Origin: Escherichia phage ECO95 1-6-1
Direction: 5' to 3' (one strand)
Sequence record: OR845257
Length of the DNA stretch: 58,949 bases
Below, one piece after another: positions 52,162 through 58,673 of the stretch (position 1 is the stretch's first letter; each line of letters begins with the position of its first letter). The position numbers and the translations under genes are program-made. The notes beneath the pieces were generated by a model. That model searched no databases and was not told the origin of the DNA. It was given only the letters and a program-made list of their open reading frames with translations.

Positions 52162-54243
52162 CTATGCTAACGCCATTGCGAGTTTCTCGAAACTGTATTC
52201 GGTATCTTTCGGCGCATCAATAGGTTCATCGCTCGGCGGTAAAATAACCATGCTGTTATCATCCCACTCCGCCGCCCATGATGGCGGGTTGTCCCAATCT
52301 ATTTGTTCAATCCCGAGCACCCGGCCGCTGACGCAAATACCCAATAAATAATACGCCAAGTCCCACGTTTCGTTTCGGGCGTGCGCCGGGTTGTGCCAGC
52401 CTTTCTCGTCACGCGTCTCCGTACACAGTTCGGCGAACACCGCGTCTCCCATCCAGTCCGGAATGTGGTACATGCCTTTGCCCGGCTCCACGACATCCAG
52501 TCGGCCGTTCAGGCTGTCTTTCATCACGTTCGAGTTAATCATCAGCACCGGAACGTCGCCGCGTGCAATGGCCTTCTTGTCTTTCTGGTTGGAGTCCGGG
52601 AGCGCCACGCGGGTACGCGGGTTGTTCGCTTTCGGGTCGCCCTTCACCAGACAGAAGCGCCCGGTTTTCCCTTCCTTCCGCAGTTTCCGGAAGAATTCGT
52701 ACGCGTTGCCAGTTACCCCGGCTTCACCGCCGGAGTCGCACGCGGTCATCTTGATCGGCAGCGAACGGCCAGAATTATCGGACAGCGGGTACGTCTTGTT
52801 CATCACTTCGGTTTCAATGAGATCCCAATCTTCGAGGTATGCGCCCGGGTGCAGGATTTTCGGGTCGCCATCGTCATCGAGGCGGCGCGATTTCGTGATA
52901 TTGAAGCGGTCGATCAGGTAGGTGTCGAACGGGTAGCCGGGGGCCACGCCATGCACCGACACTTCAAAACTATGCTTCTGCACGTCCACCGTGGCCGCCA
53001 AGAAACGCACGTCCTTCGGCACCGTCTGTTCCGGCCACTTCTCGGCGCGGGCTTTCAGCGCTTCCGGAACGCGTACCGTCTCGATAGCCTTCGGCACGTA
53101 CGGTTCGCCCATGTCGTTGTTCCAGAATTTCTTCAAGGACTCTTCGGACATCGTACGCTCGTAGTCATCCATCGCATCGAGGTAGTTCAGAACCAGTTTC
53201 TGCCATGTGATGAACGCGGCCGCCGTTCCGCGAAGCCAGAAGGACGCGAATGACGAGCGCATCGGTACCCCGGCCAGTTGGCCCAATTCGTTGACATGAC
53301 ATCCTTCCGGCACCCACATCCCCCACAGGTTCATTTCGTATTTGTCTACCGGATCGATTTCGCACCCACAATGCGGACAGACCATGCGCACCGTCTCGGA
53401 CTTTTCGAGGTTGGTAAGCGGATTGCCGTCGGCGTCTTTCGTGCTCCACTTCAAAAGCTGGAAGGTGCCTTCAAAATACTGGTCGCAGTGCGGACACGGC
53501 CATTTCCAGCGTCGGCGGTCGCCACGGTTGTATAACCCGACAATCCCGTCGCATGGCGGGGCTTCGTGTGGCGTACGCTTAATCCAGTTCGGGTCTTTAA
53601 TCGGACGTGATGGCGAGGACTCGGCCGCACACATGGCAAACGACCCGAAGGTCGTCGTACGTTTTGATGCGAGGTCGAAGGCGTTACCGTCGCCGCCGAT
53701 GTCGTCGTCGATACGGTCGTAGTCGGTGATGATAATTCGGCCAACCGGACGGCCCGCCAGTTCGGTCACAGACGGGTAACTCAACGTCAGGATGATCCCG
53801 GTAACGTAGTGTTTGTCGAATTTGTTGTCGGCGTCTCGGTTCTTCATCAGCATTTCGCCCACTTTCGGGCTATGGCGGTGAAGACGGTCTACACGTCGCA
53901 TTGAGAAGTCACGCGCTGCCGTTGACGTCGGGCAGTAGATCATCAGATCCATCGGGTCAACTTTCACCGAATAGACAATGCTATTCAGGATCAGCGCATC
54001 CGTTTTACCGGACTGTGCCGGGCCGACAAACGCCATCTTGTCGTACGCCCGGCTGTTCATCATGTTCATCGGCTCAACCATGTACGGCGTGGTCGAGTTT
54101 AGCCAATCCCCGACGTATGCGCCGGGTTGGTTGACGTAGCGATACTTGGCGGCCGCGTCGGCCACCGTCATGCGCATTGGCGGCCGTAACTGCTCGGCCA
54201 CCGAACTGATAATCTGCCCGATGCTCTTAAACTTCATCGTCAT
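52162..54243 (-). CDS. terminase large subunit (lambda GpA family)
   Basis: 693 aa; Walker A GPAQSGKTD; zinc-finger-like CPHCDQ...CPHCGC; nuclease C-terminal region. Confidence 0.9.
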   Translation of the reverse strand: MTMKFKSIGQIISSVAEQLRPPMRMTVADAAAKYRYVNQPGAYVGDWLNSTTPYMVEPMNMMNSRAYDKMAFVGPAQSGKTDALILNSIVYSVKVDPMDLMIYCPTSTAARDFSMRRVDRLHRHSPKVGEMLMKNRDADNKFDKHYVTGIILTLSYPSVTELAGRPVGRIIITDYDRIDDDIGGDGNAFDLASKRTTTFGSFAMCAAESSPSRPIKDPNWIKRTPHEAPPCDGIVGLYNRGDRRRWKWPCPHCDQYFEGTFQLLKWSTKDADGNPLTNLEKSETVRMVCPHCGCEIDPVDKYEMNLWGMWVPEGCHVNELGQLAGVPMRSSFASFWLRGTAAAFITWQKLVLNYLDAMDDYERTMSEESLKKFWNNDMGEPYVPKAIETVRVPEALKARAEKWPEQTVPKDVRFLAATVDVQKHSFEVSVHGVAPGYPFDTYLIDRFNITKSRRLDDDGDPKILHPGAYLEDWDLIETEVMNKTYPLSDNSGRSLPIKMTACDSGGEAGVTGNAYEFFRKLRKEGKTGRFCLVKGDPKANNPRTRVALPDSNQKDKKAIARGDVPVLMINSNVMKDSLNGRLDVVEPGKGMYHIPDWMGDAVFAELCTETRDEKGWHNPAHARNETWDLAYYLLGICVSGRVLGIEQIDWDNPPSWAAEWDDNSMVILPPSDEPIDAPKDTEYSFEKLAMALA

Positions 54244-54796
54244 CCACCTCGTCGCCGTTGAACTTATCGATCAGCGCGCTCGACAGGTCGTTCAGCATGG
54301 CGTCAATGGATGACGTGATGACCTGACGTTGCGGCTCGCTGAGTCCGGCCTGACGCGCCAGCGTGTCGGGAATGAGCAACATCGACATGCGGAGCACCTT
54401 CACCGCCTCGCCGAAGTGCTCGATCACCTTCTCGGTTTCCCACAGGTTGCCCGCTTTGATGTCGAAGTCCTGCTTTGCGCGCTGCCCGGCCCAAAACTCT
54501 TTCGACAACTCCTTCGGCAGATCCTTGAAATTCATGCGGCGCAGGTACGTCTCAACGTCGTACAACGGCTTAACTAGGTACGGGGCCACTTCGTGTACCG
54601 CGTAGATCGGGTACCCGCCGCGCTCGCCGACTGGCGGGACGTCCATGATTTTCGGCGTGATGTCCCGGCGCTCCATGCGGAACAGCTTTGCCAGTTGCGT
54701 GATGTTGCAGCCCTGAAAAATCATCGCTTCGGTGTCGGCGTCCGGCGCATTAGAGCGGCGATTCCGGGTTGCCAGTGGCGCATTACTCTTCGTCAT
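54227..54796 (-). CDS. terminase small subunit (Nu1-like); ends ...GDEVDDDEV
   Basis: 189 aa directly upstream of and overlapping TerL; N-terminal HTH-like segment. Confidence 0.5.
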   Translation of the reverse strand: MTKSNAPLATRNRRSNAPDADTEAMIFQGCNITQLAKLFRMERRDITPKIMDVPPVGERGGYPIYAVHEVAPYLVKPLYDVETYLRRMNFKDLPKELSKEFWAGQRAKQDFDIKAGNLWETEKVIEHFGEAVKVLRMSMLLIPDTLARQAGLSEPQRQVITSSIDAMLNDLSSALIDKFNGDEVDDDEV

Positions 54797-56342
54797 CCCA
54801 TACCCCTTTATTTTTCGATTTCTTGCGGCGTTTGATGCGCCCTTTGATGCGTTCGAGCAGTTCGAAGAACGCGTCCTGCACGTCCTCTTTGTCGTTCAGC
54901 GCCTGAATCACGACGTCGTCCGCTGTCTCGGCCAGAAGCCCGTTCGGTGTTCGCAGCATGGCTTTGAACTGGTAGATCGTAACCGGGTACTTCTGGCCCT
55001 GACGGTGAAGTCGGCCGTTGAATTGCAGGAAGCGTTCGAGTGACCACGGATTGTCGATGTAGACAATCACATGGCCGCCGTGCTGGAGGTTTAAACCGTG
55101 TCCCGCCGATTGAGGGTGCGCGGCCAGCAGGCGAATCTTTCCGGCGTTCCACTTCTTGATGCACTTGCCATCATCGTCCATGACCACCAGATCTTTAAAC
55201 CGCTCTTTCAGTCGTTCGAGGGTCGGCTTGAAGTGATAGGCGATCAGCACGTTTTTATCTGCCAGCGTGGTTTCCAGCAATTCTTCCAGCGCATCGAATT
55301 TCAGGTCGTGCAGCCTGTACGTGTCCTTCTGCTTGATGACCTTGTCGTCTTCCGTGATGCCGACGATTTTCGTGTCGTAGATGAAGCCCGAGCACATCTG
55401 CAATAACTTCGACTGCAAGGATGCCGCCTGCTCCGCCTCGATCACAATTGGGTCATCCAGATGTTCGTCGAAATCTTCCGGCATAATCTCGACAAGGCTT
55501 TCTTCCTCCATCATGCGGTACCGCTCCGCCGTCTCCCCGTCTAACTCGACCGGGACAGGAACGAAATTTGGTTCGTGCATGTCAAGGTAGTCTTCCGCTT
55601 TCATGACTAAACATATATCAGAAATCTTCCGAATAATCTCGTCTTCCGCGCCGGGGCGCAGTTTCCACTTGAAATTGTATCGGTTCTGCGTGAAGTAGTT
55701 GTCCTGATATCCCCCGATGGTGGAGCCAAAGCGCTCGCCTTCGTCCAGCAGGTAGATTTGCGAGAAGATACCCATGTACCCCTCGGCCGCAGGCGTGGCC
55801 GTCAACTCGACAATGCGTTTGATGTACTTCCGCACCCGGCGCAGCATTTTGAAGCGCTGCGAGGTGTGGGATTTGAACATGCTCGACTCGTCCAGCACCA
55901 CGGCATCGAACGGCCATTTCGTTTTGAAATGCTCGCACAGCCACGCGATGTTATCGACGCTGACCGTGTAAAAATGGCAGTCCTTGTTCGCGGCCGCCGC
56001 TCGCTCTTTGGCGTCCCCGGCGATAATCGACATCTTGTAGAAGCACAGGTGGCCCCACTCGTCGAATTCAGTCGGCCACCCGGTACGGGCCACTCGCTTC
56101 GGCGCGACGACGAGCACTTTGTTAATTTCGCCGTCCGCGATCAGGTCGAGCATGGCCGTACCTGTCATGACGGTTTTACCCAATCCGAGGTCTACGAACA
56201 TGCCGCAGTACGGATGGTCTTTGATGAACTGGACGCCTTCGTCCTGATAGTCGTGCATGTCGCTGCGGTTCAGTTTAACCGTCCGCAGGCAGTACGCGAG
56301 CGCTCTACTCAAAGGCGATAATGTAGTTTTTAAAGTCTGCAA
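54783..56342 (-). CDS. SNF2-family (DEAD/H-like) DNA helicase; ends ...GVWDDEE
   Basis: motifs GLGKT, DESSMFK (DExx), helicase-C block GLNLQHGGHVIVYIDNPWS. Confidence 0.75.
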   Translation of the reverse strand: MQTLKTTLSPLSRALAYCLRTVKLNRSDMHDYQDEGVQFIKDHPYCGMFVDLGLGKTVMTGTAMLDLIADGEINKVLVVAPKRVARTGWPTEFDEWGHLCFYKMSIIAGDAKERAAAANKDCHFYTVSVDNIAWLCEHFKTKWPFDAVVLDESSMFKSHTSQRFKMLRRVRKYIKRIVELTATPAAEGYMGIFSQIYLLDEGERFGSTIGGYQDNYFTQNRYNFKWKLRPGAEDEIIRKISDICLVMKAEDYLDMHEPNFVPVPVELDGETAERYRMMEEESLVEIMPEDFDEHLDDPIVIEAEQAASLQSKLLQMCSGFIYDTKIVGITEDDKVIKQKDTYRLHDLKFDALEELLETTLADKNVLIAYHFKPTLERLKERFKDLVVMDDDGKCIKKWNAGKIRLLAAHPQSAGHGLNLQHGGHVIVYIDNPWSLERFLQFNGRLHRQGQKYPVTIYQFKAMLRTPNGLLAETADDVVIQALNDKEDVQDAFFELLERIKGRIKRRKKSKNKGVWDDEE

Positions 56343-58633: not shown

Positions 58634-58650
58634 GTCAACGCTCCTATATG

Positions 58651-58673
58651 AAAAAAGCCCGCACACGGCGGGC
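58651..58673 (-). terminator. rho-independent terminator between the SSB-like and DNA polymerase genes
   Basis: GCCCGC-cgugu-GCGGGC hairpin followed by UUUUUU on the minus strand, just upstream of the polymerase RBS. Confidence 0.6.

Follow-up and report, generated by a model that had tools for sequence, protein, structure and literature searches.

The C-terminal tip of bacterial SSB, ..DDDIPF, is nearly invariant and serves as an interaction hub in DNA metabolism. For packaging, the closest described arrangement is the cos module of phage lambda (Nu1-A-W-B-C-D-E-FI), whose small subunit Nu1 is built of a MerR-like winged helix and a coiled coil. In the phage T7 replisome gp2.5 (SSB) and gp4 (primase-helicase) both dock on the gp5 polymerase by an acidic tail ending ..DF, and PDB 6P7E shows gp5 with a DTDF peptide bound (PMC12339929). 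The SSB of phage Enc34 (ORF6) has a gp2.5-like crystal structure; its tail is disordered, occupies the β-sheet groove of a neighbouring molecule and buries 842 Å2, the last 11 residues, including the DEV, are not visible, and deletion of the tail alters DNA specificity and unmasks dsDNA binding (PMC5686142).

The DNA analysed here (the window; 58,949 nucleotides of record OR845257, Escherichia phage ECO95 1-6-1) is a Chivirus genome, circularly permuted and with a terminal repeat of 77 nt. It is a member of the Chi-like phages (Casjensviridae: Chi, Enc34, Siskin, AH2, BcepNazgul), from which it does not differ in gene content; it is 98.6-100% identical to the listed Salmonella Chi-like phage records, with the same gene order and product names, and the region under study, where the replication and packaging modules of this Chi-like cos phage meet, is 100% identical to Salmonella phage vB_SenS_BPS1. 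The minus strand carries in order SSB, PolA, a small nuclease, an SNF2 helicase, TerS and TerL, the genes from PolA to TerL being co-directional with junctions of a 1-nt gap or an 11-38 nt overlap. The initial annotation had proposed this order and tight packing from PolA to TerL, and the open reading frames were found as placed. It had also presented the replication genes as “fused” to a packaging operon, which does not stand as a novelty: the same order is annotated in more than 100 GenBank records, and the 2015 Chi genome paper describes genes for polymerase, primase and nuclease in the stretch of over 10 kb that separates the terminase genes from cos (PMC4342425). Nor is it a universal arrangement, since in temperate relatives regulators, an excisionase or an integrase sit between helicase and TerS. 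Replication genes beside packaging genes are thus the ordinary, already published order for Chi-type phages.

TerL (52162..54237, minus strand) is of the lambda gpA type (Pfam GpA_ATPase, PF05876, 2.2e-65; GpA_nuclease, PF20454, 6.7e-60), and as in lambda the module holds gpW, a lambda-family portal and an S49/ClpP-type protease in lambda order, with cos ends in Chi, Enc34 and Siskin. Unlike in lambda, replication genes separate the terminase genes from cos, which is about 10.7 kb away, TerS belongs to DUF1441 rather than to the Nu1 family, and it bears a replisome-type tail. Further upstream on the same strand are the 519-aa SNF2-family helicase (54783..56342; PF00176 and Helicase_C), a 95-aa PD-(D/E)XK-type endonuclease (56305..56592) and the family A polymerase PolA (56594..58633; PF00476, 46 bits against a cut-off of 34.3). 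The “VRR-NUC” label of the 95-aa protein, which is used elsewhere too, was not reproduced by Pfam, where the best match was Hjc (E = 0.035); a nuclease assignment does follow from PHROG 93 (“endonuclease”, E = 3.5e-26). PolA probably starts at GTG 58633, after AGGAG (58645-58641); GTG 58666 is the less likely start and falls within a terminator-like hairpin (58654..58676, minus strand; 9-bp stem with 6 GC pairs, then a T run) that lies between SSB and PolA.

Three overlaps had been listed in the initial annotation. That between SNF2 and TerS (54783-54796, 14 nt) was borne out, with the TerS ATG at 54796 preceded by an AAGGGG motif. That between TerS and TerL (54227-54243) is obtained only with the first TerL ATG; counted from the SD-like GAGGTG (54250-54245), this ATG (54243) is 1 nt away and the second (54237) 7 nt, and the Enc34 record annotates an equivalent 11-nt overlap, so that 54237, overlapping TerS by 11 nt, is most likely the start. 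The third, between PolA and the nuclease (56594-56637), is a longest-ORF artefact requiring an unconserved TTG; the conserved nuclease ATG is at 56592, 1 nt past the PolA stop and with AAGGA in front, and Enc34 has the nuclease in its 95-aa form only. A 38-nt overlap between nuclease and SNF2 (56305-56342), absent from that list, is probably genuine: relatives keep the N-terminal extension of SNF2, which in Enc34 begins with ATG. Of the four junctions, three (those of nuclease, TerS and TerL) have an SD-like motif inside the upstream gene, and this together with the tight layout favours translational coupling, as judged from spacing. The claim that there is no intergenic promoter space holds as far as the tight junctions go, but it does not extend to a single transcript: the strong terminator-like hairpin precedes PolA, and genes without space between them need not share one transcript, the operon structure too being read from spacing. 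A sequence scan for separate promoters found only weak matches at background frequency (7 against 4.4 ± 2.4 expected).

The 189-aa protein (54227..54796, minus strand), proposed at first as a candidate small terminase subunit, matches DUF1441 in Pfam and PHROG 141 (“terminase small subunit”, E = 6.6e-59) and lies directly upstream of the gpA-type TerL; profile match and position together identify it as TerS. Its AlphaFold2 model (pLDDT 80.4) shows a predicted winged helix at about residues 20-65, a helical hairpin at 99-180 and a disordered acidic tail, for which the pLDDT falls to 52. Foldseek gave weak matches to the MerR family, so that the model, in which a coiled coil follows a MerR-like winged helix and the tail is disordered, resembles Nu1 in architecture; hhalign against an approximate Nu1 sequence gave a probability of 2%.

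The TerS tail, G-D-E-V-D-D-D-E-V (codons 54230..54256, minus strand), had been said to be shared with replisome proteins, and it proved to be shared more widely than that. With a tail defined as at least three acidic residues at positions -5 to -2 and a terminal valine, 10 of the 361 window ORFs of at least 50 aa carry one and all ten are real genes, whereas 2000 composition shuffles gave 0.087 on average and never more than 2. The gp2.5-type SSB (..DEDEDWEDEV; PF10991 7.5e-10, PHROG 112) is split across the window ends because the window is circularly permuted (C-terminal part 58700..58949; N-terminal part, MAEKLVPAKK..., 424..1; minus strand). Also on the minus strand are the DUF2800 PD-(D/E)XK exonuclease (479..1816, ..AWDDEDDDEV), a 134-aa protein of PHROG 7721 (2201..2605, ..GEEDDV), a 113-aa Xre-type HTH DNA-binding protein (5747..6088, ..AENDEV) and, directly after the major capsid gene in the lambda gpFI position, a 97-aa DUF7443 protein (47066..47359, ..GAEDEV); tails of the 134-aa and DUF7443 orthologues co-vary as described below. 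The plus strand encodes an 861-aa primase-polymerase/D5-like helicase (3126..5711, ..PFDDEDEV, followed by a terminator-like hairpin), a 123-aa DUF7609 protein (12583..12954, ..VADDDEV), a 357-aa RdgC-like recombination-associated protein (14097..15170, ..NDEDDDEV) and a 238-aa protein of PHROG 8098 (22350..23066, ..FEGDEV). In each, the linker is variable and disordered and leads into an acidic run closed by one aliphatic residue. Neither the Chi genome paper (PMC4342425) nor the Enc34 SSB paper (PMC5686142) mentions the shared tail, and literature text searches did not find it.

There is a likeness to T7: SSB and primase-helicase both end in an acidic run plus one hydrophobic residue, the tail is disordered and the polymerase itself lacks it, PolA ending ..FYRKD without an acidic tail in every relative having this polymerase. 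The differences are that the last residue here is V, I or L rather than F, and that in T7 only gp2.5 (..EDGDF) and gp4 (..NDTDF) share the end, the T7 TerS gp18 ending ..DDDIYTLQ, whereas here ten proteins do, including TerS, exonuclease, RdgC, an HTH regulator and a head-module protein; docking on the polymerase is established in T7 and is a candidate here.

It could be argued that the tails work independently of one another. Each would then either keep its protein soluble or mimic DNA and so block, intramolecularly, the surface with which that protein binds DNA (autoinhibition); there would be no common receptor, and the likeness would be one of convergent composition. Every carrier with an assigned function does bind or act on DNA, the Enc34 SSB gains dsDNA binding without its tail (PMC5686142), and in a study cited in that paper ssDNA and the T7 gp2.5 tail compete for the cleft of gp2.5. 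However, four non-homologous proteins (TerS, exonuclease, RdgC and the DUF7609 protein) end in the identical pentamer DDDEV, which would not be expected of independent tails. Furthermore, linker length differs (about 8 to 45 residues) among 107 TerS homologues with identities down to 40%, but their end remains [DE]3-5 plus V, I or L; a constant end behind a changing linker is what marks a motif that is read from the C-terminus. These data, together with the joint switching of the last residue described below, make independent tails unlikely in our view.

The tails might instead be by-products of RNA signals, since GAnGAGGTn codes for D-E-V and contains a Shine-Dalgarno sequence. Within the TerS tail, GAGGTG stands at a proper distance from TerL ATG 54237, itself located among the tail codons, and is the likely TerL Shine-Dalgarno; two other tails also lie close to a start codon, the stop and the following start overlapping at the end of the 238-aa gene and 2 nt separating the RdgC stop from the ATG after it. 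The SNF2 helicase ends W-D-D-E-E, acidic and without the terminal valine, and this end, TGGGATGACGAAGA, is invariant in six V-group genomes because the TerS start lies within the last SNF2 codons; SNF2 orthologues in many L- and I-group genomes end ..DDEL or ..DDDI. Nevertheless, the valine codons of the tails vary (GTT, GTG, GTA), as do the Asp/Glu codons among genes, and most final E-V pairs are GAA GTT, GAA GTG or GAA GTA, which are not SD-like. The 3' context is equally varied (a terminator hairpin, a 3-nt gap, a 4-nt overlap, a spacer of 40 or more nt), hairpins rather than genes follow the SSB and primase tails, and TerS keeps its tail without TerL overlap in SS2019XI (34-nt gap) and AH2 (133-nt gap). 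A long Asp/Glu run with a V/I/L switch would also make no sense for RNA. An RNA origin, largely refuted already by the codon and context data, is scarcely credible; because codons and downstream context differ between genes, selection evidently acts on the protein and not on the DNA.

Across related phages the terminal residue is valine throughout the Chi/Enc34 lineage, with all tails of Chi and Enc34 ending in Val, and isoleucine or leucine in other lineages. All tails of Aeromonas phage A18P4, SNF2 included, end in Ile and all those of Burkholderia phage AH2 in Leu; TerS, SSB, exonuclease, primase, RdgC and a ParB-like protein of Pseudomonas phage SS2019XI all end ..DDL, and three proteins of Ruegeria phage V11 end ..DD[LI]LG. 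In 53 dereplicated related loci, 45 of which have a tail on both TerS and SSB, the two terminal residues match in 41 of those 45 (V/V 11, I/I 7, L/L 23; 4 mismatches). Agreement of the last residue within a genome was 82.5%, compared to 30.8 ± 2.7% when permuted, and none of 2000 permutations reached the observed value, although this test ignores shared ancestry and the independent V/I/L switches are few, in about three to five clades. Such joint switching would not be expected of tails acting alone. In their favour, I, L, M and F ends are mixed within some genomes (L039, L041, L061-62, E21, Saba), which suggests that the aliphatic end may be partly interchangeable.

The same comparison bears on whether the TerS tail is simply its TerL-binding end, its likeness to the replisome being meaningless. 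In lambda-type terminases the C-terminal region of the small subunit touches the large one (Nu1 on gpA), the tail here is located at the TerS/TerL overlap, and the gpFI-position protein, another packaging accessory, bears it too. The TerS of the Saba/E21/Kokobel1 lineage, however, has no tail although its TerL is 61-64% identical to that of the window, which indicates that terminase function as such does not require the tail, and the last residue of TerS tracks that of SSB in the 41 of 45 loci given above. This account is decidedly improbable.

Recognition of the tail by a host factor (a protease, adaptor or host replication protein) rather than a phage protein is very unlikely. Known C-terminal recognition tags do share the C-terminal position and hydrophobic last residue, and hosts differ among the V, I and L groups. 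But tail type tracks phage lineage, not host, because Providencia phages show both V tails (L033, L034) and mixed M/F tails (Kokobel1, L047), and because E. coli phage E21 clusters with Proteus phage Saba and is unlike Salmonella phage Chi. To our knowledge the host SSB tail, read by many host proteins, is the same in all these hosts, and phage SSB, abundant and stoichiometric, is an unlikely degradation target.

We therefore favour, with moderate confidence, a T7-like docking motif with one common receptor that extends to TerS and would bring it to a replication hub. The tail would be a short linear motif acting at the protein level, and because the last residue changes together across related phages, one shared and probably phage-encoded docking partner is suggested. 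PolA is a candidate, being the only core replisome enzyme that never bears the tail; the concave OB-fold surface of SSB, where the tail of a neighbour sits in the Enc34 crystal, is another. As in bacterial SSB, a disordered linker would lead to an acidic/hydrophobic C-terminal docking peptide, but in bacteria one nearly invariant tail has many readers, whereas here many carriers imply one or few readers and the last residue shifts between lineages. TerS and the gpFI-position protein would thereby be recruited to a hub of replication and recombination proteins, which would place the terminase on newly made concatemers. The co-variation of the tails is consistent with such coupling of replication and recombination to packaging, and it is plausible that in these phages packaging is coupled to replication through the tail.

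On the minus strand the genes run in the order SSB (58700 onward; PF10991, Enc34 ssDNA-binding), family A DNA polymerase (PolA), a 95-aa endonuclease, SNF2 helicase, a 189-aa DUF1441 protein, gpA-type TerL, gpW, lambda-type portal and protease. The initial annotation had taken the 189-aa protein to be the small terminase, TerS, and profile search bore this out; the whole protein matches PHROG 141, "terminase small subunit", at E = 6.6e-59 and PHROG 57 at E = 8.7e-08, small-terminase annotation in PHROG being based on position and homology rather than on assay. Its gene, terS (54227-54796), overlaps the gpA-type TerL gene by 11-17 nt, and terS lies directly upstream of the TerL gene, in the same orientation, in each of the 67 related loci that yielded both genes. 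On profile and position we accept the protein as the predicted small terminase. DUF1441 was the only Pfam match at E <= 0.01, a threshold at which the Nu1 family (Phage_Nu1) did not match TerS; NCBIfam gave no match for TerS, the nuclease or a 134-aa protein discussed below, and searching PDB sequences with the TerS profile returned nothing meaningful (E >= 0.67).

An AlphaFold model of TerS (30 homologues, mean pLDDT 80) contains three short helices and a beta-hairpin in residues 20-65 and long helices in residues 99-180, with the last nine residues at low confidence. Foldseek searches with this model gave weak matches only, mostly to MerR-family regulators with a winged helix and coiled coil, and also to RacA, BldC and an excisionase. 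A winged helix followed by a coiled coil is the architecture of lambda Nu1, which the predicted layout of TerS may resemble; comparison by hhalign of the TerS homologue alignment with a Nu1 sequence was not significant (probability 2%, E = 0.025), the HTH alone being in register.

The 95-aa nuclease had been labelled VRR-NUC (PF08774), the name also used in other records, and this label was not upheld; there was no VRR-NUC match at E <= 1, the best Pfam match was Hjc (0.035), and the protein also matches PHROG 93 endonuclease and PHROG 5702 Holliday-junction resolvase. The SNF2 helicase matches PF00176 with 41.4 bits (cut-off 24.9) and PF00271, Helicase_C, with 24.9 (cut-off 23.5). Wherever a related locus contains both genes (78 loci), the helicase gene precedes terS on the same strand. 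The two genes adjoin each other (roughly -20 to +40 nt) in the nearer, lytic lineages, whereas in distant and temperate relatives they are separated by one small gene or a block of 1-6 kb; the genes inserted in AH2, Pseudomonas SS2019XI and Ruegeria V11 include a regulator and an excisionase, and in two of the three an integrase. The literal overlap of the helicase gene with terS is therefore a feature of the lytic subgroup. Judged from these comparisons the replication-packaging arrangement is old, and it is already annotated and already published; gene order and TerS assignment are previously known and ordinary.

The C-terminus of TerS is a run of Asp and Glu closed by one aliphatic residue. 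When such a tail was defined as at least three acidic residues at positions -5 to -2 followed by a terminal Val, in ORFs of at least 50 aa, ten ORFs of the window carried it and none of the other 351 did; composition shuffles gave 0.087 tails on average. The carriers are TerS, SSB, a DUF2800 exonuclease, a PrimPol-helicase, RdgC, an Xre HTH protein, DUF7609, the 134-aa protein, a 238-aa protein and a 97-aa DUF7443 protein, four of them (4/10) having no known function. SSB (PF10991, PHROG 112) ends ..DEDEDWEDEV and the PrimPol/D5-like protein ends ..PFDDEDEV. The codon for the terminal Val varies between genes (GTT, GTG or GTA), and the stop codons are followed by a hairpin (SSB, primase), by 2-4 nt to the next start (RdgC, 238-aa) or, elsewhere, by a spacer; this variety of codon and of downstream context shows that selection acts on the peptide and not on a nucleic-acid signal, whether DNA or RNA. 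A single genuine dual use occurs among the tails, the internal GAGGTG of TerS, which serves TerL. An origin of the tail as a by-product of Shine-Dalgarno (SD) motifs or overlaps was rejected on the same codon variety and downstream context, and on relatives that have the tail and no overlap. The hairpin after the primase gene (+), with its T run at 5721-5747, lies between this gene and the convergent Xre HTH gene (-) and is probably a bidirectional terminator.

The 97-aa DUF7443 protein (47066-47359, minus strand), which ends ..GAEDEV, is encoded directly after the major capsid gene, where lambda has gpFI. Among its orthologues the ends are ..DDEL (Saba), ..NDEI (A18P4), ..DDDL (E21) and ..DEDL (SS2019XI). 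Chi, Saba, A18P4 and SS2019XI each have the same tail type on this protein as elsewhere in the genome; the tails of E21 are mixed.

Orthologues were tabulated across seven whole genomes and 80 loci of 20 kb. The globular part is well aligned across 107 TerS homologues with identities down to 40%; it is followed by a linker of variable length and then by [DE]3-5 and V, I or L. Outside the Saba/E21/Kokobel1 lineage, each genome uses one and the same last residue on its tails, and the choice of residue changes from lineage to lineage. Val tails are found in Chi, Enc34 and the Klebsiella and Providencia (Stilesk-like) phages, and Ile tails in a second group that includes Aeromonas A18P4, whose SNF2 helicase also ends ..DDDI. 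A third group has Leu. It includes AH2, whose tails are all Leu, and Pseudomonas SS2019XI, where seven proteins close an acidic run with Leu, mostly as ..DDL: TerS, SSB, exonuclease, primase, RdgC, one ParB-like protein and one of 136 aa. In these temperate relatives (L007-L010) the ParB-like protein ends ..PADDL or ..DDDDL and a RusA-like resolvase ends ..IDDDL. In Ruegeria V11 (L013/L014), SSB, exonuclease and a 201-aa protein (51070-51795, 51746-52939, 54010-54615) end ..DD[LI]LG, in appearance another version of this motif system, and TerS ends ..GSDLDV.

Across 53 dereplicated loci the tails of TerS and SSB paired as V/V in 11, I/I in 7 and L/L in 23, with 4 mismatches. Agreement of the residue within genomes was 82.5%, against 30.8 +/- 2.7% when residues were permuted within each protein family, a test that ignores shared ancestry, the independent switches numbering only a handful; each switch spans five to eight non-homologous proteins simultaneously. 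The exceptional lineage of Saba, E21 and Kokobel1 (L042, L043, L047) has a TerS without the tail (..VVKHG, ..GGKNG), a primase ending ..DVF or ..NVF and an exonuclease ending ..VWDD(D), and its other tails mix L, I and M; from these termini the system looks relaxed or rewired there. Providencia phages have two tail types, and the E. coli phage E21 groups with the Proteus phage Saba; among the genomes compared, tail type follows phage lineage, not host, which favours a phage-encoded reader. A search for prophage relatives in bacterial genomes, intended to set host against tail type, gave only 7 loci, all of them MAG contigs.

The coupling of these genes had been described as a series of overlaps with no room for internal promoters. 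Spacings at the PolA/nuclease, nuclease/SNF2, SNF2/TerS and TerS/TerL junctions are +1, -38, -14 and -11 nt, with the SD-like motifs AAGGA, GGTGG, AAGGGG and GAGGTG in the same order; the genes thus have the co-direction, the overlapping or abutting stops and starts and the SD motifs within the upstream gene that a translationally coupled operon would show. A 44-nt overlap claimed between PolA and the nuclease does not hold; it requires an upstream TTG for which Enc34 has no equivalent start, and the PolA stop is at 56594 and the nuclease ATG at 56592, after AAGGA. The SNF2 ORF starts at TTG 56342, 38 nt within the nuclease gene; its N-terminal extension, which opens with ATG in Enc34, is conserved, with at least 8 residues before ..MHDYQ in every relative and about 20 or more in all except Ruegeria V11. 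The 14-nt SNF2/TerS overlap is real. TerS and TerL also overlap, as had been proposed, the proposed 17 nt applying only from the first ATG; the second, at 54237, gives 11 nt and is most likely the TerL start, because GAGGTG lies 7 nt upstream of it, against 1 nt from the first ATG, and because the Enc34 annotation has the corresponding overlap of 11 nt. For PolA the probable start is GTG 58633, preceded by AGGAG; a longer start at 58666 falls within a strong terminator-like hairpin (58676-58654).

Scanning for promoters gave solely 9-of-12 sigma-70-like matches, at background frequency, and for terminators weak sites inside genes and the one strong hairpin upstream of PolA. Alignment of the Val-tailed (V) group showed no conserved promoter-like block in the 150 nt before terS; conservation there is codon-like apart from a dual-coding block at the TerS start, and a conserved internal promoter ahead of terS was dropped on this pattern. 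The only invariant stretch is TGGGATGACGAAGA (54783-54800; around 9995-10010 in the six V-group genomes L015, L018, L023, L025, L032 and L033), which encodes both the W-D-D-E end of SNF2 and the M-T-K start of TerS. This dual coding may be why SNF2 lacks the terminal Val in the V lineage, full tails (..DDEL/..DDDI) being found elsewhere.

Over 52000-58949 the sequence matches Salmonella phage vB_SenS_BPS1 at 100% identity and the other listed Chi-like phages at 98.6-99.9%; the phage belongs to the Casjensviridae. Records titled "Staphylococcus phage SA 1298 Kay" (OR849869, OR850235 and others) are 100% identical to the Chi-like genome over the aligned stretches, Listeria-, Enterococcus- and Escherichia-named records also match, and a MAG contig labelled Advenella kashmirensis (L095) encodes an identical TerS; the non-enterobacterial names probably stem from mislabelled or contaminated database entries. 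The window holds a complete genome in circularly permuted form. Bases 1-77 are repeated exactly at 58873-58949, so that the real genome is about 58872 bp long, and the SSB gene is split by the window ends (424..1 joined to 58872..58700, minus strand). Alignments of several related cos-cut records (among them Siskin, NSP, iEPS5 and 118970_sal1) stop at query position 1013, window 6712, which places the cohesive end at ~6700-6712, ~10.7 kb upstream of terS; the Siskin record is annotated with a 5' overhang. The Chi genome paper likewise puts the terminase genes more than 10 kb from cos (PMC4342425).

A shared docking motif with a single co-evolving reader would be expected to give this combination of a disordered linker, a C-terminal peptide that does not vary and unrelated proteins that change in concert. 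It could be argued that the TerS tail is simply a TerL-binding end, or an artefact of the overlap, yet it is kept where there is no TerL overlap and lost in a lineage with a similar TerL. The docking interpretation has a parallel in T7, where gp2.5 ends ..GDF and gp4 ends ..TDF. Here too a gp2.5-type OB-fold SSB bears a disordered acidic tail, the primase-helicase bears the same kind of tail, and the terminal hydrophobic residue is constrained, the constraint here being evolutionary (concordance within genomes, retention behind variable linkers). Both T7 tails dock on the gp5 polymerase, with a DTDF peptide seen in PDB 6P7E (PMC12339929). The Enc34-family SSB has a gp2.5-like structure with a disordered tail, which in the crystal packs into the concave sheet of the molecule next to it (PMC5686142). 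PolA, in relatives having this polymerase, is the one core replisome enzyme always without a tail, and for this reason it ranks first as candidate receptor, with the SSB body second. Since each tail group is a clade, residues of every protein would correlate with tail type.

We tentatively propose, at somewhat less than an even chance, that about ten Chi proteins dock by an interchangeable C-terminal acidic peptide on one hub encoded by the phage (PolA or the body of the SSB), which would physically tie cos recognition and packaging initiation to a replication-recombination factory. Besides the proteins of the replisome and of recombination, the docking set would include a regulator of transcription, the small terminase and the gpFI-position protein, and co-evolution of the pocket with all the tails would produce the lineage-wide V, I and L switches. 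We class the system with the T7- or SSB-type acidic docking tails; the apparently new part is the shared, co-varying tail that includes TerS. The Chi (PMC4342425) and Enc34 SSB (PMC5686142) papers make no mention of it, and searches of an incomplete literature library on the motif, on Chi acidic tails and on terminase acidic tails found nothing relevant.

The tail motif offers a cheap marker of proteins in the DNA-metabolism network, and its natural V/I/L variation between lineages gives a swap or suppressor route to the receptor. To our knowledge, little is understood, beyond T4 and T7, of how tailed phages pass freshly replicated concatemers on to the packaging motor. A TerS that shares a docking-type peptide with SSB, primase-helicase and a recombination nuclease provides, in a tractable Salmonella phage, a mutable five-residue handle for probing whether replication or recombination is coupled to cos packaging.
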